The translations under genes and the position numbers were made by a program. 46,219 nucleotides of DNA from sequence record NC_007603.1; one strand, written 5' to 3'. The notes under the pieces were generated by a model. That model saw nothing but the letters and a program-made list of their open reading frames with translations, did not search any database and was not told where the DNA came from. Shown here piece by piece: positions 3,460 to 43,962 of the stretch. The first letter of the stretch is position 1. Each line of letters opens with the position of its first letter. This DNA is from Escherichia phage Rtp.

Positions 3460-3502
3460 TAGCACTTTTTATTAAAAAAGGATCGGACTATCTTGCTATA
3501 GT
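3460..3502 (+). promoter_or_regulatory. palindrome-promoter cassette (variant TAGCACTTTTTATTAAAA)
   Basis: TAGCAC at 3460; TTGCTATAGTTACCCCATCGAAAC at 3493-3516. Confidence 0.45.
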
Positions 3503-4892: not shown

Positions 4893-4969
4893 GCCCCGCT
4901 AGCTCAATTGGATAGAGCAACGACCTTCTAAGTCGTAGGTTACTGGTTCGAATCCAGTGCGGAGCGCCA
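4893..4969 (+). tRNA. tRNA-Arg (anticodon UCU)
   Basis: Hand-folded cloverleaf: acceptor GCCCCGC/GCGGAGC (one C-A mismatch), D-arm GCTC-AATTGGATA-GAGC, anticodon arm ACGAC-CTTCTAA-GTCGT, T-arm ACTGG-TTCGAAT-CCAGT, encoded CCA. Confidence 0.7.
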
Positions 4970-5812: not shown

Positions 5813-6319
5813 ATGAGCAAAGCAGCATTAAAGATGGGTGAGGGAAATTTCAAGGCGCTCTACAACAAGAAGTATGGCGACATTGCTATGGTGGCAATCA
5901 ACCGCAAGTACACGCCTGAGGAGGTTTTCGATTTCGCCGTTCGATACTTCTCCTGGGCAGAGAGTGCAGCAATCAAGGCAGCCGAGACAGCGTCATTCCA
6001 GGGCGTAGTAACTGAACACCTCATACACAAGCCTCGAGTGTTCACCTTAACGGGTTTGGCGCTCTTCATGGGTGTTAACATCAATAGATTCGCTCGCTGG
6101 CGTACTGAGGCTGGATACTCTGATGTGATGGAATTCATTGATAACGTAATCTACGAGCAGAAATATCAGCTTGGTGTTGCAGGCATCATTAACTCCACCA
6201 TTGTTGGTAAAGAGTTGGGAATCGACAAGCCGCAGGAGATCACCATTAGCAATAACTCTACGGCTAACGATGTTGATAGCATGAAGGAAGCGCTTGAATC
6301 TGTGATTGGTAAGCTGTAG
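5813..6319 (+). CDS. putative terminase small subunit
   Basis: 168-aa ORF immediately upstream of the large terminase; SD AAGGAGG; extended -10 TGgTATAAT upstream; call by position and size only. Confidence 0.5.
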   Translation: MSKAALKMGEGNFKALYNKKYGDIAMVAINRKYTPEEVFDFAVRYFSWAESAAIKAAETASFQGVVTEHLIHKPRVFTLTGLALFMGVNINRFARWRTEAGYSDVMEFIDNVIYEQKYQLGVAGIINSTIVGKELGIDKPQEITISNNSTANDVDSMKEALESVIGKL

Positions 6320-6364
6320 CACTTTTTGTTAAAAGAAGAGGCCCAATCAATGAGATAATGGGCC
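6317..6364 (+). promoter_or_regulatory. palindrome-promoter cassette (variant TAGCACTTTTTGTTAAAA)
   Basis: TAG shared with the terS stop; 22-bp spacer; GATAAT 6354-6359 inside inverted repeat GGCCCA/TGGGCC. Confidence 0.45.
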
Positions 6365-6387
6365 CAATGAAATAACGAGGTGATGAT

Positions 6388-6864
6388 ATGAATTGGCATG
6401 ATATTTTTGATTATGATGGATGTAATTTATACAGAAGGGATTCTGGAAAAAAGGCTGGAACAAAAGCGGGCCCTAGAGGTTACATTCAGTGCAGAGTTGG
6501 TGGTGGACTACCTAAGGTTTATGCTCACAGGATTATATGGGAGATGCACAATGACAAGATACCTAACAGCATGGTTGTTGACCACATTAACCACATATAC
6601 GACGACAATAGAATTGAAAACCTAAGGTTAGTAACAGTTAAGGAAAATTCTAGCAACATTAAGAGATCAAAGAGAAATACAAGTGGCATACAAGGAGTTA
6701 GGAGAAGGAGTGATAACGGAAATTGGTACGCGGACTTAAGAGTTGATGGAAAGCTAAGGCAAATGCCAATGCGACATTGCTTTGAAGACGCAGCAGCCGA
6801 TAGGATATATCTTGAAGTGTACCACGGGTTTCATCCAAATCATGGAGCAATAGTAAATGAGTGA
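6388..6864 (+). CDS. HNH endonuclease with AP2 domain (homing endonuclease-like)
   Basis: HRIIWEMHNDKIPNSMVVDHINHIYDDNRIENLRLV motif; paralog of 21464..21979; sits between terS and terL. Confidence 0.8.
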   Translation: MNWHDIFDYDGCNLYRRDSGKKAGTKAGPRGYIQCRVGGGLPKVYAHRIIWEMHNDKIPNSMVVDHINHIYDDNRIENLRLVTVKENSSNIKRSKRNTSGIQGVRRRSDNGNWYADLRVDGKLRQMPMRHCFEDAAADRIYLEVYHGFHPNHGAIVNE

Positions 6865-8428
6865 CCTAATCGTATGGGATGAGCTGACTCACGCTGAGAA
6901 GATGGCTATAAAGGCCATCTCTGAGCATAGTTTCGAGGGATTCTTGCGTTGTTTCTTCCAGATAACTCAGGGTGAGAGATTTAAAATGAATTGGCATGCG
7001 AAATACCTTTGCCGCGTCATAGATGAGATTCTTGAGGGTAAGAGAAAGGACACCATCATAAACGTAGCTCCTGGGTCAGCCAAAACCGAACTGTTTAGCA
7101 TCCATTTCCCTGTTTATAGCATGATTAAGATTAAGAAGGTTAGGAATCTTAGCTTGTCGTTCTCTGACTCACTTGTTAAGCGCAACTCCAAGCGCGTCCG
7201 CGACCTGATTAAGTCAAAAGAGTTTCAGGAACTTTGGCCATGCTCCTTTGGAACATGCAGGGATGACGAGATTCAGGTTCTGGATGAGAATGGTAAAGTT
7301 AGATTTGAGTCTATATCTAAGGCAATGGCGGGACAGGTGACGGGAAGCAGGGGTGGCTACATGACCGATGATTACAGTGGTTGCATAATGCTGGATGACC
7401 CGCTAAAACCTGATGATGCGCTGAGTAATGTAAGGAGGGAGGCTGTCAACATGCTTCTCAAGAACACAATTCGCTCGCGTCGCGCTAGCTCGGTAAAAGG
7501 GAAGGAAACGCCAATAATTGCTGTGCAGCAAAGACTTCATGTTCTGGATACTAGCCACTTCATGGAGTCAGGACAAATGGGCATCAAGTTCGATGTGGTG
7601 AAAGTTCCTGCCATAGTCACGGAGGATTACGCCGACACGCTTCCTGATTGGATCAAACAACAATTTATTGATGATGTTCTTTCATCACCATTTGTAGAGC
7701 GGGATGGGGTTAAGTATTACAGCTATTTTCCAGCAAAGGAATCAATAGAAGACTTAATGGCCATGCGAGACGCTGACCCTTACACATTCCTTAGTCAGTA
7801 CGCTCAAGAACCCGTAGCGCTTGGTGGCAATCTTATTAACGTGGATTGGTTCCAGCGCCTTAGTGATACATTCAGACCTCCAGCTAAGTACGATTATAGA
7901 TTCATAACTTGCGACACGGCGATGACTACAAAGAGTTATAGCGACTTCTCTGTACTCCAGTTGTGGGGCTATAAGGACGCTAAGATTTACCTGATAGACC
8001 AGCGCAGGGGTAAGTGGGAAGCTCCGGAGTTGGAAGCTGAACTGCTGGATTTCGAGAAGAAATCAAGGTCAACCAGTCAGTCAGATGGCATCCTTAGAAA
8101 GATTATTATCGAGAAGAAAGCATCCGGCATCGGACTCATTCAGTCGGCAGGAAGGGTAATGCGAACACCCATAGAGCCATACGTACCTGATAACGACAAG
8201 CTAACCAGGGTAATGAGCGCACTGCCGCAGATTAAGGCTGGCAATGTAGTTCTTCCAGAATCAGCGCCGTGGTTAAGCGGATTGCTTACTGAGATTGCAG
8301 CTTTTACGGCAGATGACTCGCATAAGCACGATGACCAAATTGACTGTCTAACAATGGCAATCAACCTGGTACTTAACATTGCCGATGATCCTAAGGCTCG
8401 ACTAATGCGCATAGCTGGAATGAAATAG
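6857..8428 (+). CDS. terminase large subunit
   Basis: 523 aa; N-terminal ATPase region and C-terminal nuclease-like region (ITCDTAMTT...DFSVLQLWG), typical terminase architecture. Confidence 0.85.
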   Translation: MSDLIVWDELTHAEKMAIKAISEHSFEGFLRCFFQITQGERFKMNWHAKYLCRVIDEILEGKRKDTIINVAPGSAKTELFSIHFPVYSMIKIKKVRNLSLSFSDSLVKRNSKRVRDLIKSKEFQELWPCSFGTCRDDEIQVLDENGKVRFESISKAMAGQVTGSRGGYMTDDYSGCIMLDDPLKPDDALSNVRREAVNMLLKNTIRSRRASSVKGKETPIIAVQQRLHVLDTSHFMESGQMGIKFDVVKVPAIVTEDYADTLPDWIKQQFIDDVLSSPFVERDGVKYYSYFPAKESIEDLMAMRDADPYTFLSQYAQEPVALGGNLINVDWFQRLSDTFRPPAKYDYRFITCDTAMTTKSYSDFSVLQLWGYKDAKIYLIDQRRGKWEAPELEAELLDFEKKSRSTSQSDGILRKIIIEKKASGIGLIQSAGRVMRTPIEPYVPDNDKLTRVMSALPQIKAGNVVLPESAPWLSGLLTEIAAFTADDSHKHDDQIDCLTMAINLVLNIADDPKARLMRIAGMK

Positions 8429-20627: not shown

Positions 20628-20640
20628 ATTGGAGAAATAT

Positions 20641-21396
20641 ATGTTAAGTCCAAAGTTTGAAAATCAGTTGCAAAGTCTTTTCCCTGGCGAGATTGTGACT
20701 CTAATCCAGGTAGACGGGACGGCGTTTGGCTCTCTCGTTTACAACTTCCACAATGAAAACATTTCATATACACCAGAAGAAATAATGCTGGCCCAAATGA
20801 ATGGCGAGCCACTACCAGAGAAGATAATCACATTTCGCGGAGAAGAGTATGGCCCAAGACCTTTCGGTATCTCTGGTATAAATATGACTTCTGACGGCAA
20901 GGCTAACAAGGTCACGTTGACAGTATCAAACGTAGACCAGAGAATTAGCGCACTTATCCGCACCTACAATGGATTGGTTAAAGCAAAGGTTACTATCTGG
21001 ATTACTACGCGCGATAACATCAATGAGGATGGAAGCATTGCCGATGGTGACTATCGCCGATTCGTTTACTTCATTGAGAGACCAAAGCAAGTTGATTACA
21101 AGACGGCATCATTTGAGCTTAGCAGTCCGATGGATATGGATGGTATCTACATTCCTGCGCGACTTGTTCAGTCTGTTTGCTATTGGGCGTCAAGGGGGTG
21201 GTATCGCAGCGGTAATGGCTGCGACTACGCTGGTAATCGTTATTTTGACAAGGATGACAATCCAGTTAATGACCCCTCCTTAGACTTCTGCGCCGGAACT
21301 GTTAATAGCTGCAAGATTAGATTCGGCGAGAATAACCAGCTTTCATTTGGTGGATGCGCGGCTGCAAGCCTGCAAGCTAAAGCTAATCAATCATAG
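20641..21396 (+). CDS. minor tail protein (lambda L-like)
   Basis: C-terminal cysteine cluster (C..C..C..C) as in gpL Fe-S proteins; ORF track 20629 trimmed to ATG 20641 with GGAG SD. Confidence 0.75.
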   Translation: MLSPKFENQLQSLFPGEIVTLIQVDGTAFGSLVYNFHNENISYTPEEIMLAQMNGEPLPEKIITFRGEEYGPRPFGISGINMTSDGKANKVTLTVSNVDQRISALIRTYNGLVKAKVTIWITTRDNINEDGSIADGDYRRFVYFIERPKQVDYKTASFELSSPMDMDGIYIPARLVQSVCYWASRGWYRSGNGCDYAGNRYFDKDDNPVNDPSLDFCAGTVNSCKIRFGENNQLSFGGCAAASLQAKANQS

Positions 21397-21441
21397 CACT
21401 TATTGCTAAGAGGATAGCTCAATATTGCGCTATCCTATAAT
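21394..21441 (+). promoter_or_regulatory. palindrome-promoter cassette (27-bp spacer variant)
   Basis: TAGCACTTATTGCTAAG shares TAG with the L stop; inverted repeat GGATAGC/GCTATCC; TATAAT 21436-21441. Confidence 0.45.
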
Positions 21442-21463: not shown

Positions 21464-21979
21464 ATGAATTGGCATGATTACTTTAGATATGAAGACGGCA
21501 AGTTATACTGGATTAGCTTTCCAAACCCAGAGCAGACAAGGAGCGTAAAGATAGGAGATGTTGCTGGATACAAACACCCTGACAACAAGGGTTACATTAG
21601 GGTTCAAGTTATGGGTAAGATGCTAAGGGTCCATCGCGTGATATGGGAAATGCATAACGGAAAAATACCAGAAGGCATGGAGATTGACCACATAAATGGG
21701 ATTAGATCAGACAACAGAATTGAAAACCTAAGAATTGTTAATGGTCTTGAGAACATGAAAAATAAGGGGATTTATAAAAACAACAAAACTGGATTTGTTG
21801 GGGTTGAGAAAATTAAAGCAAACGGAAAGTACAGGGCAAGCATAAGAGTTAATAAAAAACTTATTTTTCTAGGTGAGTATATTTCAATTGAAGATGCCAT
21901 TGACGCTAGAAAGAAAGCTGAATGTGAATACCTTTTCCATAAGAATCACGGAGTTAGAAATGCTTACACCAAAAGTTAA
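21464..21979 (+). CDS. HNH endonuclease with AP2 domain (homing endonuclease-like), paralog of 6388..6864
   Basis: HRVIWEMHNGKIPEGMEIDHINGIRSDNRIENLRIV motif; inserted between L-like and K-like tail genes. Confidence 0.8.
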   Translation: MNWHDYFRYEDGKLYWISFPNPEQTRSVKIGDVAGYKHPDNKGYIRVQVMGKMLRVHRVIWEMHNGKIPEGMEIDHINGIRSDNRIENLRIVNGLENMKNKGIYKNNKTGFVGVEKIKANGKYRASIRVNKKLIFLGEYISIEDAIDARKKAECEYLFHKNHGVRNAYTKS

Positions 21980-22718
21980 ACTGGAAATCTTCCAGCACGC
22001 AAAAGAAGTTTACCCGCACGAATGTTGCGGGATTGTCACGCAAAAGGGTCGGGCTCAAAAATATCACAGAATCACTAATGCCAGCAAGGATCCAGAAAAC
22101 GAGTTTATCCTTGATTCAAATGAGTATGCTGATGTTCTTTTTGAGTTAGCTCACAATGAATCTATTGTTTACGTGGTTCACTCTCATACGGGTGACGGAG
22201 CGACAACGAGACCTAGCCCAGCAGATATCTGTAGCTGCAATGAATGCGAGATTCCGTATGTTATCGTCAGCATTCCAGAGGGTGACATGAGAATTCTCGA
22301 GCCATCAACCATGCATCTGATTGGTAGGCCATGGGGGCTTGGTAGCTTCGATTGCTGGGAGTTGGTGATGGCGTTTCACAAGAAATACGGCGTCAAACTG
22401 AATGACTATCGAGTCAATTACCCGTGGTGGGAGAAGCGGTACAATGAAAACATATATGACGACAATTGGATTAAGGAAGGATTTGAGCTGGTAAAAACTT
22501 CAGATATTCCTATTGGCTCCATGATTATGATGCAGGTGCAAAGTGAGGTGACAAACCACGCCGGAATCTACATTGGCAATAACAGGTTCATCCACCATCT
22601 CTATGGTAAAATGAGCTCTGTTGATATCTACTCCGATTACTGGCGAGAGCGCACAGTGCGAATCGTTCGCCATAAGGATTTACCAGAGGATGTAATTTAT
22701 GACCCAGAAACTGATTGA
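21960..22718 (+). CDS. tail tip assembly protein (lambda K-like; JAMM/MPN plus NlpC/P60)
   Basis: HSHTGDGATTRPSPAD (JAMM-like) and a C-terminal Cys/His region; ORF track 21873 trimmed to ATG 21960 (GGAG upstream), which overlaps the HNH gene 3' end. Confidence 0.75.
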   Translation: MLTPKVKLEIFQHAKEVYPHECCGIVTQKGRAQKYHRITNASKDPENEFILDSNEYADVLFELAHNESIVYVVHSHTGDGATTRPSPADICSCNECEIPYVIVSIPEGDMRILEPSTMHLIGRPWGLGSFDCWELVMAFHKKYGVKLNDYRVNYPWWEKRYNENIYDDNWIKEGFELVKTSDIPIGSMIMMQVQSEVTNHAGIYIGNNRFIHHLYGKMSSVDIYSDYWRERTVRIVRHKDLPEDVIYDPETD

Positions 22719-27687: not shown

Positions 27688-28000
<313 letters not shown>

Positions 28001-28087
28001 TCGTATACACGTAACCGATGTAACTCGATGTATACAATCTCATCCGCGGAAAATGATATACGCGCTGTTACGCTAATTTACGCATTG

Positions 28088-28170
28088 GTTACATTAAAAT
28101 ATCTATATATATCAACCTTTTACTCTTATTATTATTATTATATATATTACTGTGTATATCATGTAACTAC
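28088..28170. repeat. about 80-bp AT-rich repeat, copy B
   Basis: TTACATTAAAATATCTATATATATCAACC...TTATTATTATTATATATATTACTGTGTATATCATGTA; pairs with 215-296. Confidence 0.7.
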
Positions 28171-30855: not shown

Positions 30856-33738
30856 TTAAATCAATTTAACAGATCTTAACTCATTACCAGAAGTTGTAGA
30901 TATTGTTGTTGAACTAACTAACGTCCCAGACAATGCAAACGAAATAGCTCCAGTCGATGAGGATCTAGTAGCAAACCTTTGAGGTGAATCGCTTATAACA
31001 CTTATCTTATTTGCTGTAAAAGTATTAGAGCCAGAAAAACCAGTAGTTACAACCAAATCCTGATTGAGTCTAAATCCAAATCCAACAGTAACAGAGGTTG
31101 ACTCGCTCACAGGAATGTTAAGCCCATTTAGCCGCACACCTGAGATATCAAAGAAATCACAAGAAGAAAGAAGCGCCCTTCTTGAAATGCCTGTTGTTAT
31201 TGGTAGCGTACTCTGAGACTGTCCATTGAAGTTACATACAAATCTTGTGTTAATGAAACTAATATCATGATTAACAGAGCCATCAACCGGAGAGGCCGTA
31301 TCAGATGTTGACTTAACAATACCGCCAACAAATTTTATTGCCACAGGTCCATTTGGGTCTGAACCATAGTAAGCTCTAAGCCTTTCAACATTACAATTAA
31401 CCATGTAATAGCTCCCCCTCTGGTTTGTCTCAAATATAGGGTATCTCGAGCTTCCGACAGGTGAAGAGAGATCATATATAGAAACGTTAGGGTTATGAAG
31501 ACTGTTAGCACCCATGAAAACGATATTATTTGATAAAATCCCCTTTATACTTATGTTGGTAGTAAACCTTCCAGTCAATGAGCTTTCAGAATTTGTCATG
31601 TCCGAGAATGGCCCCTTAAACCTTGAAAAATCAATAGTAAGCCCCAAGCTAGCAGATGATGGGAAAGCCGACATGTTAACATCTGATATTGAAACGTCAG
31701 AAGGGAAAAGCAGCGCACCATCTCTACTTGAGTAGAATAAATTACCAGGATGAGAACTGTAGCTTCCTGACTTGAAGTTAAGGCCCTTAATCCTAACTGA
31801 GTTAAACAGAGTGCTCTTTATTGGTGAGCCAGCTACAGGTCCATTTCCTTCATAAGAAATTCCATTTATCAAACCCGTCCCGGTCAGGCCAGTACTTCTT
31901 GTGCCTGTAAAAGTAATGTTATCCATGTAAAGGTTTCCGTCAAAGAAACCTCCAGCGTCTGCCCTTGTTGTTATGATATTCCCATTCGTATATCTAGACG
32001 CATTAAATGCACTATCCCTTATATGCAAATCGCCAAGACCAGTAACAACAACACCACGGGCACCGATATTGCAGTTTTCAATCTTAAGGTAGTTATGGAA
32101 AGGCATGTGAAAGTCAATTCTACTTAGATCACAATTTTCAAAAGTTACGTTTGCGCAGTTGTTACTACCATTTGCGCCCCATCCTTTACCGTTAACCCTT
32201 GCGTTCATAATCCTTACGTTCATTGATTCACCTATTGATAAGGCGTATGAGTAAAGCTCACCAGAAGAATCTCTTGCGTCTGCAACAGACTCGGCAAAAA
32301 GACCATCAACTGTGATATCATATGAGTTAGCTATTGCCAACCTTGTATCGCTAAACCCTTGTGTTATCGGCTTGTTAATAAAAGAAATATCTTTTATTGA
32401 CAACCTTGTAGAATTATTAACATAAACTATCTGATACCGTGTCGAAAGACTTTCATCTATAGTTAAACCCTTGATTTCCTGAGTTGTCTTGTTTATCTTC
32501 AAGGCTCTAACTGATGTAACATTATTTCCAAGATCATACTTCAGTGAGTTCTCCAGATAACCCCTATTGTAAACCCTATTGAGTTCAATTCTTTTCTGAA
32601 CAGAATCCCTATATGTGTACATGTCCTGATTTGTATAAAAAACAATAAAACAACCATCAAGGTCACGATTTTCAGATATAGAGTCGAACAAATTACTTCC
32701 AGCAGTTCTTGATTCATTAGACATGGAGTTAAAAGATGAAACAACAGATGACGAAGCGTCATAAGTTGTAGGTTCCCCGTTGGTTATAGTTATCTGCCCG
32801 GTCCATGAGGATGATGGTTTTATAACAGAGCCTGTAAAATCAGCACTCAATGAACCAATATCAATATAATCGGAACCAGAAACAAGAAAAACACCATCAT
32901 TCTGCTTTATCTTTAGATTTTTGGATTTTGCGTAGTTTATCGCTCGATTTATACCTGAAATATCATTAGTAATACCATCTCCAACACACCCAAAATCATA
33001 GAAACTAACATAACCTTTAGATCCTAGCTCAGACCACGAAGAATCACCAATCCCACCAGAAGAATATGGTGTCGAGTTTTCCGGGACTGTCTTAGGTAGA
33101 TCTCCCATCCATACGTATGACTTTGGCTTACCGGAGTCAAGCCATATCATTTGTTGATTTCTTGACTCTATTACACCTCCGGACTCAAATGATGAAATTA
33201 AGGCACCAGATAATGATTCCGCATAACCCCGTGCAGCTTGTTCTGATGACATTGCTAATCCAGCACTCGCTGCAGCAGAAGCCATATCACCTGCTACCTG
33301 GGCAGCATTCTGCGCAACCTGTGATGACATGTTTACAACATCGCCATACTGATTGTTAACCTGTGTTACTTTAGATTCAAAATCATTAAAGTCAAAGTTG
33401 TTAAATACATCAACTGCATCAGCAACCTCAGTTTCACGTGACTGATAGTAACGAAGAGTCTCAGCAACATCTTGAGCTAATCCCTGAACGGTAATCCCAT
33501 CATGAGCAAGAATAGCGTAACCAGTTCCAGCAGGAACAGTTTCAGAATTAGGGTTATAAACATTAATCTGCGTATCGCTGATGATCTCAGAGATGGTGTA
33601 AATTTTTACTGGCTCAGTTTTAAATACAATGGTGGCACCTACGCGAATCAGTGTAAGCGGTGCTTTCCATGTTGTCCCGACACCAGTCACCTCGCCGTTT
33701 GCAGCTAATGATGCGGATCCCAAGTCATAAATTGCCAT
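30856..33738 (-). CDS. lateral tail fiber / tailspike with right-handed beta-helix (pectate-lyase-like) domain
   Basis: About 960 aa; FYDFGCVGDGITNDISGINRAINYA resembles the pectate-lyase/tailspike N-cap motif; ORF track GTG 33768 trimmed to ATG 33738. Confidence 0.7.
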   Translation of the reverse strand: MAIYDLGSASLAANGEVTGVGTTWKAPLTLIRVGATIVFKTEPVKIYTISEIISDTQINVYNPNSETVPAGTGYAILAHDGITVQGLAQDVAETLRYYQSRETEVADAVDVFNNFDFNDFESKVTQVNNQYGDVVNMSSQVAQNAAQVAGDMASAAASAGLAMSSEQAARGYAESLSGALISSFESGGVIESRNQQMIWLDSGKPKSYVWMGDLPKTVPENSTPYSSGGIGDSSWSELGSKGYVSFYDFGCVGDGITNDISGINRAINYAKSKNLKIKQNDGVFLVSGSDYIDIGSLSADFTGSVIKPSSSWTGQITITNGEPTTYDASSSVVSSFNSMSNESRTAGSNLFDSISENRDLDGCFIVFYTNQDMYTYRDSVQKRIELNRVYNRGYLENSLKYDLGNNVTSVRALKINKTTQEIKGLTIDESLSTRYQIVYVNNSTRLSIKDISFINKPITQGFSDTRLAIANSYDITVDGLFAESVADARDSSGELYSYALSIGESMNVRIMNARVNGKGWGANGSNNCANVTFENCDLSRIDFHMPFHNYLKIENCNIGARGVVVTGLGDLHIRDSAFNASRYTNGNIITTRADAGGFFDGNLYMDNITFTGTRSTGLTGTGLINGISYEGNGPVAGSPIKSTLFNSVRIKGLNFKSGSYSSHPGNLFYSSRDGALLFPSDVSISDVNMSAFPSSASLGLTIDFSRFKGPFSDMTNSESSLTGRFTTNISIKGILSNNIVFMGANSLHNPNVSIYDLSSPVGSSRYPIFETNQRGSYYMVNCNVERLRAYYGSDPNGPVAIKFVGGIVKSTSDTASPVDGSVNHDISFINTRFVCNFNGQSQSTLPITTGISRRALLSSCDFFDISGVRLNGLNIPVSESTSVTVGFGFRLNQDLVVTTGFSGSNTFTANKISVISDSPQRFATRSSSTGAISFALSGTLVSSTTISTTSGNELRSVKLI

Positions 33739-33803
33739 TGTGTAAAGTCTCCATTTGTAAAATAGCACGAATTGCTAAGTTGGATTGTAGCATCTTTCAG
33801 GCA

Positions 33804-33828
33804 TAAAAAAACCTCCCGAGGGAGGTTA
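33804..33828 (-). terminator. rho-independent terminator (minus strand)
   Basis: Minus-strand CCTCCC-TCG-GGGAGG plus T7, overlapping the primase stop. Confidence 0.6.
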
Positions 33829-34749
33829 GTTTAGCAAGTCTTTGGCTTTGTACACTTTCTTGCGTATTCCTGTTTTGAATGACTTCCCGTCATTAGGTAT
33901 CACCACATCAACATTGCGATCATCAGCGGCAATAAGTATATCAGTATCACAATCGCGGCAAGCAACCCTAAACTTCCTTGACCTGTCGCGGTGGATGACC
34001 ATTTCCACGTTGTAAGAGGAGAAAGCAACAAACACTTCGCGACCACCTGTAGCCAAGTGAACACGTACACCATCAATAAAATTATCGACAATATAAGTAT
34101 AGCTACCATCCTGCTTAGAACCAATAACGGAAACAGAATCACGTGTGTAATCACCAGCAAGGAATTTAACATTTGAATCTCCATCAATAAACATTAAGTT
34201 GCAGAACTCATCACCAAGACCATCCTCGTAAACCATTGAGCAGGGTACGGCATGAATCATTGAGCCATCCTTAGCTATGCCAACATCGAATCCATCATCA
34301 AGATAAATACCTTCATATGTTGTGAGTGGGCTTGATTCAACTCTTACAGTCCGATCCATGACTTCAAGAACTTTTTCATGATCTACCTGTGCGCCCATTT
34401 TGTAACGCTGAGTCCTTGATGCTTGCTTATTTGCCTTATTAACCACCTCTACAGGGATAAGGTTTAACCACTCACCGAGAACATCTATACATTCACTGAA
34501 TGACTCCCCCCTCATCTTTTGTAACCACAGAATTCCATCGCCTGAGCCACACTGGTTGCAGATAATGCCACCATCACCTTCTTTGCTAACCTTGTTAGTC
34601 CATCGTGCTCGGTCGTTTCCTCCACAATAAATACATGGCTGATGCTTTTTGGTCTGGAAGAATTTTGGGTCTGCGCCGCAGATATTGATAAGTGCCTTAT
34701 CCCACAGGCCGCGCATTCTTGGTAAAACCTCTTTCTTATCGTAGTGCAT
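33826..34749 (-). CDS. putative DNA primase (zinc-ribbon type)
   Basis: N-terminal CIYCGG-x-DR...C-x-QCG-x-GDG zinc-binding motif resembling P4-type primase zinc ribbons. Confidence 0.5.
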   Translation of the reverse strand: MHYDKKEVLPRMRGLWDKALINICGADPKFFQTKKHQPCIYCGGNDRARWTNKVSKEGDGGIICNQCGSGDGILWLQKMRGESFSECIDVLGEWLNLIPVEVVNKANKQASRTQRYKMGAQVDHEKVLEVMDRTVRVESSPLTTYEGIYLDDGFDVGIAKDGSMIHAVPCSMVYEDGLGDEFCNLMFIDGDSNVKFLAGDYTRDSVSVIGSKQDGSYTYIVDNFIDGVRVHLATGGREVFVAFSSYNVEMVIHRDRSRKFRVACRDCDTDILIAADDRNVDVVIPNDGKSFKTGIRKKVYKAKDLLN

Positions 34750-34807: not shown

Positions 34808-35281
34808 TTACTCTTTAGCTTTTCGTGCTGCCTCATTAGCGGCCTTGATCTTTCTCCATGAACGACACTCTGGTTTGGTTGCTAACTCGGACTCAGTAAC
34901 CACACGCAGCATGTGACGCTTCTTGCACCGTAATGTCAGCGGCTTTCCGTTGCCGTCGAATTGCAGGTCTGGTCGGCAGAATGTAGCGCGAAAACCTTCT
35001 CCATTTCGCTTGTAGTAGTTGTGAGAAAGCTGAGCGCCGCGAGCAGATATCATTCCACGCTTAAACCATTCCTCTACAGCCTGTGGTGTTACCTTTAACT
35101 GCTTTGCGATATTCGCCTTTGTGCCGAAGAAATCAAGAACAATCTCCAGTCGCGCGCGCAACCCTGCCCTTACTTCATCTTTCAAAACGTAGTAACCTGA
35201 AGGTCGTTTTCGTTGTTTTTTGTCTTCAGTGCGGACAGTTCCGTTATTACCGTTGATTGTTCTCTTGTCGACTGTATTCAT
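34808..35281 (-). CDS. putative HTH DNA-binding protein
   Basis: IAKQLKVTPQAVEEWFKRG resembles a Cro/C1-type helix-turn-helix; basic N-terminus. Confidence 0.5.
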   Translation of the reverse strand: MNTVDKRTINGNNGTVRTEDKKQRKRPSGYYVLKDEVRAGLRARLEIVLDFFGTKANIAKQLKVTPQAVEEWFKRGMISARGAQLSHNYYKRNGEGFRATFCRPDLQFDGNGKPLTLRCKKRHMLRVVTESELATKPECRSWRKIKAANEAARKAKE

Positions 35282-42192: not shown

Positions 42193-43776
42193 TCACCCCA
42201 ATAGTCGTGGATTAACGTAAACTTTATCACCAATCAGGCACGTATAGTTTTTCTCATCAAGCATTGGCAGTAAGCGATCTTTAATCTTTGTCATTACACC
42301 AGCTTGAGCCTCAAACGGCTTAACCTTTCGAGCTGCCTCATACAATGAACGAATACCAACTACACCTTTCCCGTTCTTGCCTTGCTTGATCAGTATATCA
42401 ACCAGCTTGCTCATCTCAGCATGGTCGCCAGCGTGACCAGCAGCGTTAGCTGATGACAGATACGTCTTGCTCAGCTCCTGGAACATAATCACAGCTTCTT
42501 GCATGGTATCAAGTTCAATCTCTCTGGATTTCTGTGGACTACCGCCATTTGGGTTGAACCAGTTGCGCACAGTGTGAAGAACAGCTGCAATCCTGATGGC
42601 CTGCTTATCGAACTTACCCAACGCGCCACGTAACATTGTGTGTGAATACTTCCCGCCATCTGCAAGGTGAGGCTCCATCTCCTGACGCGCACGGTTGAGG
42701 TATTTCATCGCTGAGTTGCTCACTGTCAGCTTAACATCTTGCTCATTCATTATTTCATGAACTAAACGGAAGTAATCTGCCTTCAGCTCGCCATTAATTG
42801 GTTCGTATGTTGAGTTGCCATTCTCATCAACGAATACGCGCTCACCAAGGAATGATTTTTCACGAACCAAAAGGAAACGTTCAGATACACCGATACCACG
42901 CGCACCAGCATTCATGATGGCGTTGATTGTTTCATCCTGCGCAATTACAGAGATGCAACCCATAGCAACGAAACTCATGTTATTTTCTGCGTTGGCACGC
43001 GCGATAGATACGTTACCGGCATCCCATGCCTTAAGCACAAGTTCGCTGTTCGTTTTCTTAGAGCCATCACCATAGGTCATGCCAAGAAGTGAATTGACGC
43101 TAGTTGCTTCATCCGAGATTACAGCGAAGTTACCCTGTCGGTTGTTTATTCGCGCAAGACCTTCCGGAGTGGTATCTGACACTGGAAATACGATATCGCA
43201 CATCTTTTCCAGCTTTTCCTCTAAATCCTCTTTTTCCTCAAACAGCGCCGCCATCTCTGATGGTGACTTCTCCTGCTTCATCTCTTTTGATAATACAGAT
43301 AGTTTTGCCATGATCTTCTTGCGCTCACGCTTTCTCAATTCATTCAGTCGCTCAGTCTCAGCAATCATTGGAGCAATTGAAAGTGAGTTGATGGCTGATT
43401 TACCTGTCGATGGTGGTTGGCTTGTCACGACATAAAGCGAAGTTGGCTGCTGAGTTCCATGATACTCAACAGTAAAACGGCCCAGCATGGCAGCGGAAAT
43501 ACACCCCAGAAAGTGCATATAAGCTGAAGACTCAGGGAACTGAACAGAACGGGCAATATTGGCTGAAAGCTTACCAACAACATCAATGTCATTACCGAGT
43601 GAGATTACGGGATACTTGTCATTAGCCGCATCAATCTCGACTGGTGCTTTCCAGAATGATTGAGACTGACGATAGCCATTAGCATTAATAGCGACGCGCA
43701 GGGGTGGGAGGTTGTCTGCGGCAGCAATTGCCATAACCTGTTCAACAGATAGTTTATCTTCGTTGAAATCAAACAT
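42193..43776 (-). CDS. P-loop NTPase (putative replication / primase-associated ATPase)
   Basis: 527 aa; Walker A-like PPSTGKS; cassette promoter variant upstream; function not resolved. Confidence 0.55.
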   Translation of the reverse strand: MFDFNEDKLSVEQVMAIAAADNLPPLRVAINANGYRQSQSFWKAPVEIDAANDKYPVISLGNDIDVVGKLSANIARSVQFPESSAYMHFLGCISAAMLGRFTVEYHGTQQPTSLYVVTSQPPSTGKSAINSLSIAPMIAETERLNELRKRERKKIMAKLSVLSKEMKQEKSPSEMAALFEEKEDLEEKLEKMCDIVFPVSDTTPEGLARINNRQGNFAVISDEATSVNSLLGMTYGDGSKKTNSELVLKAWDAGNVSIARANAENNMSFVAMGCISVIAQDETINAIMNAGARGIGVSERFLLVREKSFLGERVFVDENGNSTYEPINGELKADYFRLVHEIMNEQDVKLTVSNSAMKYLNRARQEMEPHLADGGKYSHTMLRGALGKFDKQAIRIAAVLHTVRNWFNPNGGSPQKSREIELDTMQEAVIMFQELSKTYLSSANAAGHAGDHAEMSKLVDILIKQGKNGKGVVGIRSLYEAARKVKPFEAQAGVMTKIKDRLLPMLDEKNYTCLIGDKVYVNPRLLG

Positions 43777-43962
43777 TACTTCTCTCCGTGTTGTTTCTGA
43801 GCGGCCATTATATCAACGACCGCTTATAATTCATTATCAATTTGTGCTATTAATTGTTCTTAATCCACTTTAGACACATCCAGGTGCCAGCAACGTAAAG
43901 CGCTAGCTTTGCTAACTCGTACGCTAAGTGTGTAAATAAAGCAAAATTAGAAATAAGCTCAC

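Follow-up and report, generated by a model that had tools for sequence, protein, structure and literature searches.

We analyze here two related genes in the genome of Escherichia phage Rtp (Drexlerviridae, Braunvirinae), termed HNH1 and HNH2, together with the gene junctions at which they lie; the window is the complete published genome (NC_007603.1), 46,219 nucleotides (nt) in length. HNH1 (rtp20, YP_398964.1/CAJ42224.1, 158 amino acids [aa]) occupies positions 6388..6864 on the plus strand, behind a GAGGTG ribosome-binding site read from the sequence at 6377-6382 (+), and lies between the genes for the small terminase, terS (rtp19, 5813..6319, +), and the large terminase, terL (rtp21, 6857..8428, +). 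HNH2 (rtp40, YP_398984.1/CAJ42244.1, 171 aa) occupies 21464..21979 (+), between the gene for an L-like minor tail protein (rtp39, 20629..21396, +) and that for a K-like tail-tip protein of the JAB/MPN plus NlpC/P60 type (rtp41, 21960..22718, +). We refer to each nuclease gene with its leader as a cassette, terS being the upstream flank of cassette 1. The open-reading frames (ORFs) and their neighbors had been proposed in an earlier note made from the sequence. The ORFs lie at the coordinates given there, and Pfam searches bear out the neighbors: the terS product matches GP3_package (E = 1e-12) and aligns with the annotated terS of BEK2, IME253 and SU57, the terL product matches Terminase_6C, the L-like protein matches Phage_tail_L (E = 6e-46), and the K-like protein matches Prok-JAB and NlpC/P60. 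The true start of the L-like gene is probably the ATG at 20641, and relatives annotate a 251-aa protein. Gene numbers were obtained by accession arithmetic, anchored on rtp11 = YP_398955.1 in the table of the DTL paper. Neither nuclease gene is new: an exact protein look-up shows both products already named "HNH endonuclease" in the 2006 Rtp genome record, and searching the window with both proteins (tblastn) returns these two copies only.

HNH1 and HNH2 align end to end with 42% identity over 166 columns (BLASTP, E = 1e-35). Both score well above the gathering cutoff (24.8) of Pfam HNH_3 (PF13392), with 68.1 bits for HNH1 and 78.3 bits for HNH2, and both match PHROG 99 (phrog_99; E = 6e-48 and 5e-63). 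The core motifs listed in the earlier note, HR(I/V)IWEMHN(D/G)KIP, (V/I)DHIN and DNRIENLR, are present as described; its N-terminal pattern was slightly off, the Gly of HNH1 (NWHDIFDYDGCNLY) lying one position earlier than that of HNH2 (NWHDYFRYEDGKLY), and the motif ends in YDGCNLY in the former and in YEDGKLY in the latter. The catalytic-motif residues, D65, H66, N74 and N78 in HNH1 and D75, H76, N84 and N88 in HNH2, align with the DH...N...N of I-HmuI, from which their roles are carried over. In the DH...N...NLR motif, all 47 homologues examined have the D, N, L and R, and at least 90% of them have the His. Every family-invariant column of this 47-member family, including the catalytic Asp, the Asn and the Asn-Leu-Arg, is present in both Rtp proteins, and both look functional.

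The N-terminal part of these proteins resembles I-HmuI (PDB 1U3E) throughout. As a single sequence HNH2 matches it from residue 1 to about residue 100 (E = 1e-3), a span covering both the N-terminal MxWxD..Y.G and the DH...N...N, and a profile of the 47 family members matches it over positions 1-106 (E = 3.6e-7). Positions 99-150 of the same profile match the plant AP2/ERF domains of WRI1 (7WQ5, E = 2.8e-4) and TEM1 (7ET4, E = 1e-2). An AlphaFold model was made for HNH2 (mean predicted local distance difference test score, pLDDT, 83), and HNH1 was placed by its end-to-end alignment with HNH2. In the model the C-terminus comprises strands at 114-116, 123-129 and 132-139 and a helix at 142-155, forming a predicted three-stranded sheet on a helix. 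The top Foldseek match of the model is I-HmuI (1U3E, E = 3.8e-4, probability 1.00), followed at probability ~1.0 by the AP2 structures 7ET5, 7WQ5 and 1GCC (the last with a TM-score of 0.71, normalised to the target), with the lambda Int arm-binding domain ranking after these. Some full-length homologues carry a precomputed Pfam AP2 match (PF00847). The C-terminal 73 aa, used as a single query sequence, gave no match in the PDB. The label "HNH-AP2" given to both genes in the earlier note is therefore correct at the level of the family profile and the predicted fold, and does not extend to a direct Pfam AP2 match.

The HNH-AP2 family is large, with 2,400 phage records and 3,300 places, and its members are annotated as "homing endonuclease", "HNH endonuclease" or "AP2 domain protein" in BEK2, Rao1, AHP42, ESCO41, T1 and others. 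The closest relatives of HNH1 within the phage collection searched are below 50% identity, and one metagenomic protein, P0122, is 81% identical to it. Pairwise identities within the family all lie at about 40-50%, the two Rtp copies included (~42-46%), and a recent intragenomic duplication can be ruled out on this count. That HNH1 and HNH2 resemble each other no more than they resemble the HNH proteins of other phages indicates instead that they are independent acquisitions of one family. The term "paralogous" used for them earlier thus stands in the sense of common family membership and not in that of a recent duplication within Rtp.

As the earlier note had proposed, both junctions were compared with those of related phages, the best relatives in the phage collection (BEK2, SU57, 2725-N35, FP and DTL) being ~88-91% identical to Rtp in DNA. 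Empty sites are found at both positions in relatives of ~88-90% DNA identity, so that neither gene is a constant occupant of its junction. At the terS-terL junction, terL begins 16-19 nt after terS with no insert in IME253 and SU57, and the same short span without an HNH gene is seen in DTL and SCS31; the leader of the cassette is present in 11 of 34 related records (FP, BEK2, BEK3, RobRod40, 2725-N35, JeanPiccard, TR1-3, CY1 and Rao1). At the L-K junction, record spans of ~2,546-2,549 bp, against 3,101 bp in Rtp, identify 35 of the 40 best records as empty, and direct reading of 2725-N35 gives 9 nt from the L stop to the K start. The flanking genes are intact and directly abutting in the empty alleles, which rules out an intron or intein origin.

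Occupied junctions do not always hold the Rtp gene. JulesPiccard and AHP42 carry a different HNH gene at the L-K junction, and DTL has an endonuclease-like ORF there according to the DTL paper. In SU57 (L006, 1470-1823) and ACG-M12 (L007, 1428-1781) the same junction is occupied by a 117-aa non-nuclease ORF similar to gp37 of phiEB49, preceded by the dyad promoter motif that heads the Rtp cassettes (see below) and followed by a terminator-like hairpin; this gp37-like ORF represents a second cassette type at the L-K hot spot. Two further observations concern the terS-terL junction. The HNH gene of BEK2 (L001, 576-1088) reads QIDRINH, with Arg replacing the catalytic His that the near-identical gene of 2725-N35 keeps in its DH, and is probably an inactivated endonuclease. 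In IME253, terS is ~90% identical to that of Rtp in DNA and terL only 60-73%, a recombination breakpoint that falls exactly at the junction where the cassette is inserted.

The empty alleles also bear on a function in packaging that the earlier note had suggested for HNH1. In such a function HNH1 would be a terminase accessory factor resembling HK97 gp74 and stimulating DNA cleavage by terminase. In some cos phages this cleavage depends on an HNH protein, and the location of HNH1 between terS and terL is the one feature that fits. SU57, DTL, SCS31 and IME253, however, have no HNH gene between terS and terL in flanks of ~90% DNA identity, and where other relatives do have one it is only 41-45% identical to HNH1, the BEK2 copy lacking the catalytic His. 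HNH1 furthermore has the HNH_3 plus AP2, I-HmuI-like architecture rather than that of the small terminase-associated HNH type, and a paralogue of the same kind resides in the tail operon. For T1-like phages, circularly permuted genomes have been reported, which means headful packaging rather than packaging from cos sites (PMC4070988, which concerns T1-like phages and not Rtp itself). We reject this explanation, which the close relatives without HNH at terS-terL bring close to refutation, as exceedingly improbable.

The nuclease genes do not share the history of their flanks. Relative to Rtp, BEK2 has 94% (terS) and 97% (terL) amino acid identity in the genes around the terS-terL junction and 41% in the HNH protein between them, and JulesPiccard has 96% (L) and 97% (K) around the L-K junction and 50% in the HNH protein there. 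The opposite holds for the metagenomic sequence that encodes P0122 (L017), in which terS and terL are 57% and 76% identical and the HNH protein at the same junction 81%, the cassette being 78% identical in DNA and its flanks 72.5% and 70.3%. In a second metagenomic sequence (L010, encoding P0002) the values are 62.5% for L, 58% for K and 66-67% for the HNH protein at L-K. This discordance argues that each nuclease lineage keeps its site while moving between genomic backgrounds and that different lineages replace one another at one site. Both cassettes are also poor in guanine and cytosine (GC), at 39.6% and 36.6% against 44.3 ± 3.2% for the genome. Next to the L-K insertion, the last two L codons and the stop read CAATCATAG in the HNH alleles of Rtp and JulesPiccard and CAGAGCTAA in the empty and gp37-like alleles.

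We interpret HNH1 and HNH2 as intergenic, free-standing genes for HNH homing endonucleases, which belong to the I-HmuI-like HNH_3 plus AP2 class and were acquired independently at two gene junctions, and we consider this reading very likely. The spread of homing endonucleases envisaged in the earlier note is supported by comparative evidence, consisting of the empty-site alleles and of occupants discordant with their flanks.

The cassettes are closely fitted to the genes around them. At the 3′ end, the overlap between the terL start (ATG at 6857) and the HNH1 stop is 8 nt (ATGAGTGA), and that between the K-like start (ATG at 21960) and the 3′ end of HNH2 is 20 nt. Both overlaps had been noticed before, and both starts align with annotated starts in relatives (SU57 and BEK2 for terL; 2725-N35, SU57, ACG-M12 and JulesPiccard for K). 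The GGAG ribosome-binding site of terL (6844..6847, +), 9 nt before its ATG, falls on the Gly codon of the Asn-His-Gly of HNH1 (6841-6847), and that of the K-like gene (21950..21953, +), 6 nt before its ATG, lies inside the Asn-His-Gly codons of HNH2 (21947-21953). These C-terminal residues are invariant in the family, and their codons (AAY CAY GGR G) give a GGAG or GGGAG Shine-Dalgarno sequence 3-9 nt before the downstream ATG in seven of eight occupied alleles, this use of the codons being seen in Rtp and in L001, L004, L008, L009 and L010. Empty alleles have a Shine-Dalgarno sequence of their own, GAGGG or AGGGGG. The conservation of Asn-His-Gly suggests a possible dual constraint, acting at both the protein and the DNA level.

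At the 5′ end, each cassette begins exactly at the upstream stop codon, a TAG that also opens a dyad, TAGCA-N5-TG(C/T)TA. The left end of cassette 1 is TAGCA-CTTTT-TGTTA (6317..6331, +), an imperfect copy of TAGCA-N5-TGCTA that is found at the same place in BEK2, 2725-N35, Rao1 and L017 and is missing from empty alleles. It is followed by an inverted repeat, GGCCCA...TGGGCC (6340..6364, +), enclosing a -10-like TGaGATAAT (GATAAT at 6354-6359) 22 bp after TTGTTA. The HNH1 leader is nearly identical in BEK2 and 2725-N35 despite their differing HNH ORFs. Cassette 2 begins with a perfect dyad, TAGCA-CTTAT-TGCTA (21394..21408, +), which recurs in JulesPiccard, in L015/L016 and in the gp37-like cassette of ACG-M12 and is missing from the empty allele of 2725-N35. 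Behind it, at 21412..21441 (+), an inverted repeat GGATAGC...GCTATCC (21412-21418 and 21429-21435) precedes a TATAAT (21436-21441) located 27 bp after TTGCTA, 5 bp beyond the usual 22 bp; at the homologous position AHP42 has an annotated promoter with a long spacer. Three genes, terS (6317-6319), terL (8426-8428) and the L-like gene (21394-21396), use the TAG of a dyad copy as their stop codon; in the empty alleles, terS and L stop at a TAA instead.

The same motif recurs throughout the genome. The perfect dyad TAGCA-N5-TGCTA has 10 copies against 0.05 expected (2360, 3078, 4028, 8426, 16304, 21394, 33763, 37796, 44951(-) and 46145(-)), and a wider motif, AGCACnnnTTGYTAA, has 17 copies at one mismatch or fewer, imperfect dyads lying at 3461, 6318, 29630, 35296, 38480, 43848(-) and 45917(-). 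Copy orientation tracks the local direction of the genes, a -10-like TATAnT stands at a fixed 22 bp behind 13 of the 17, and in many copies the -10 lies inside a second inverted repeat (GGGGTA-N4-TACCCC). Given the 22-bp spacing, the center of the dyad would lie near -42, where class II activators bind, and the copies look like a family of activator-dependent promoters. A scan for canonical sigma-70 promoters (16-18-bp spacing) returned nothing upstream of HNH1 or HNH2, because the spacing between motif and -10, at 22-27 bp, is outside the canonical range. The earlier proposal that each gene has its own cassette promoter thus holds in so far as a conserved promoter-like motif heads each cassette; the motif itself is genome-wide rather than specific to the cassettes. 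One copy differs from the rest: at 33763-33830, on the border of oppositely oriented genes, a strong hairpin (AAAAAAACCTCCCGAGGGAGGTT) takes the place of the -10-like sequence at 22 bp.

The window also encodes a candidate for the protein that would bind the dyad motif at the head of both cassettes. Gene rtp52 (34808..35281, minus strand; YP_398996.1) specifies a Cro/HTH-like protein that matches phrog_2856, "transcriptional regulator" (E = 5e-84), and the Pfam model P22_Cro below threshold; the table of the DTL paper lists it as "putative transcriptional regulator (Rtp)". We found no account of the dyad motif in the literature searched, the 2006 Rtp genome paper being outside its scope. Ten conserved inverted repeats are said to have been proposed there as Rtp52 sites, and we presume that these probably are the ten perfect dyads; the two HNH endonucleases are reportedly described there as lying at positions different from those in T1.

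A cassette that brings its own stop codon, promoter and ribosome-binding site can be expected to have little polar effect on terL or on the K-like gene. This arrangement leads us to put forward, tentatively and as somewhat doubtful in its entirety, a view of the cassettes as plug-in modules. Their 5′ end would consist of the dyad promoter with a TAG replacing the upstream stop, and their 3′ end of Asn-His-Gly codons doubling as the downstream Shine-Dalgarno sequence. Divergent HNH lineages, or non-nuclease genes, might then be interchanged through the shared ends; nuclease expression would be tied to an Rtp52-type program, and the conservation of Asn-His-Gly would partly reflect constraint at the DNA level.

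The shared ends also raise an explanation in which the endonucleases are passengers or helpers. The two junctions would be general hot spots, where small genes equipped with the dyad promoter are swapped by homologous recombination in two conserved stretches, the 5′ leader and the beginning of the downstream gene, as with the promoter-early stem-loop (PeSL) cassettes of T4-type phages. Every occupant of the two sites, the 117-aa non-HNH ORF of SU57 and ACG-M12 among them, is headed by the same dyad. In JulesPiccard and BEK2 the leader and the first ~25 codons are near-identical to those of Rtp, with only 41-50% identity in the remainder of the HNH ORF; the 17 copies of the motif would moreover offer many recombination substrates within one genome. 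Yet the great majority of occupants are HNH endonucleases whose catalytic motifs are intact, and the nearest homologue of each Rtp nuclease holds the same site in distant phages, as fits site-specific targeting. We therefore consider such shuffling unlikely as the explanation of the two insertions, while recognizing that shuffling and homing are not mutually exclusive.

Under the homing-endonuclease interpretation, the cassettes would spread in mixed infections in which Rtp meets a relative with an empty junction. The enzyme, expressed from the phage-type promoter, would bind DNA near the empty junction through its N-terminal beta-sheet region and its C-terminal AP2 domain, and its HNH (beta-beta-alpha-metal) site would nick or cut that junction. 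The damaged junction would then be repaired by recombination with the Rtp allele as template, so that the recipient gains the cassette together with some of the sequence around it. The cassette appears built to be harmless to the operon that receives it, with a 5′ TAG that would end the upstream gene and a 3′ end that would supply the downstream Shine-Dalgarno sequence. A complementary route may be recombination that uses the leader and the beginning of the downstream gene, both of them conserved, as is suggested by the near-identical leaders on very different HNH ORFs, by the non-nuclease occupant of the L-K junction and by the drop in identity of IME253 at terS-terL. The best-supported mechanism that we infer is classical intron-less homing.

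Several results weigh against this interpretation or against parts of it. The Pfam AP2 model (PF00847) has no direct match to HNH1 or HNH2 even at E ≤ 10, and the AP2 region of HNH1 is without the usual LGxF motif, with MPMRHCF in its place. The non-nuclease ORF at the L-K junction of SU57 and ACG-M12 implies that cassette turnover need not strictly require an endonuclease. HNH2 and P0002 are only slightly more conserved than their flanks, which long vertical co-inheritance would also fit. Finally, flank identities in 60-nt sliding windows, computed for four relatives per site, reveal no clear co-conversion tract beside either insertion; the L-gene ending that separates the HNH alleles from the empty and gp37-like ones is the one local signature.

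A further possibility is that the genes are retained for a benefit to the phage, either through interference competition, in which they would cut co-infecting relatives that lack them, or through a catalysis-independent blunting of host defenses that sense DNA breaks, such as GAPS4. There is precedent in T7 homing endonucleases and in the I-HmuI-like HNH protein of the small siphovirus Bas24, which restricts related phages and requires its catalytic His to do so (bioRxiv 10.1101/2025.09.07.674715), and both Rtp ORFs are intact, with all invariant family residues present. Close relatives nonetheless manage without either gene, and a benefit of this kind would be a function added to a homing endonuclease rather than an alternative identity. 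We regard it as very unlikely to account for the presence of the two genes, which are better read as homing endonucleases.

Elsewhere in the window, a single tRNA-Arg gene (anticodon TCT) lies at 4893-4969 (+), and the same tRNA is annotated in SU57 and 2725-N35. Three other stretches are GC-poor (27851-28100, 32001-32600 and 43651-43950; 35-38% against the genome mean of 44.3%) and may have been laterally acquired too.

Few accessory genes are commoner in T1-like phages than those for HNH-AP2 homing endonucleases, and the two Rtp genes carry little weight as a discovery. Their comparative picture does make them a clean, well-bounded example, with exact empty-site alleles in SU57 and DTL for terS-terL and in 2725-N35 for L-K. 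They exemplify how a cassette that contributes a stop codon, a promoter and a ribosome-binding site may spare essential operons from polar effects, and they call for caution in the use of the terminase and tail-tip regions of Braunvirinae genomes, which are prone to recombination and make poor phylogenetic markers.

Among known systems, I-HmuI of Bacillus phage SPO1, a nicking enzyme, is similar in its N-terminal beta-sheet DNA-binding segment (MEWKDIKGYEG... in I-HmuI, MNWHDYFRYEDG... in Rtp) and in an HNH core that aligns end to end. It is, however, encoded in a group I intron and ends in a helix-turn-helix, whereas the Rtp proteins are free-standing and end in a domain of predicted AP2 fold. 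The Rtp genes are members of the free-standing HNH-AP2 homing endonucleases (PHROG 99; HNH_3 plus AP2) found in T1-like phages (Drexlerviridae) and others, from which only their exact sequence lineages differ. With the terminase-associated HNH proteins of the HK97 gp74 type, HNH1 shares a gene position adjoining the terminase genes. Proteins of that type are small, consist of a single HNH domain and are both conserved and required in cos phages; the Rtp gene is dispensable in close relatives and has the I-HmuI/AP2 architecture. The PeSL cassettes of T4-type phages resemble the Rtp cassettes as small genes at variable junctions with a phage promoter and an inverted repeat in front. PeSL motifs, in contrast, flank their cassettes on both sides, and those cassettes are non-nuclease, whereas the Rtp motif is found at the 5′ end only and is the general dyad promoter of the phage, of regulator type. 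The free-standing homing endonucleases of T4 (seg and mob, for example mobE) are likewise intergenic between conserved essential genes, patchy among relatives and described as spreading by cleavage (PMC2790892) of the endonuclease-less allele and repair, a route that Rtp would share by inference. The mob proteins of T4 differ from the Rtp proteins in their domains, and the seg proteins are GIY-YIG enzymes.

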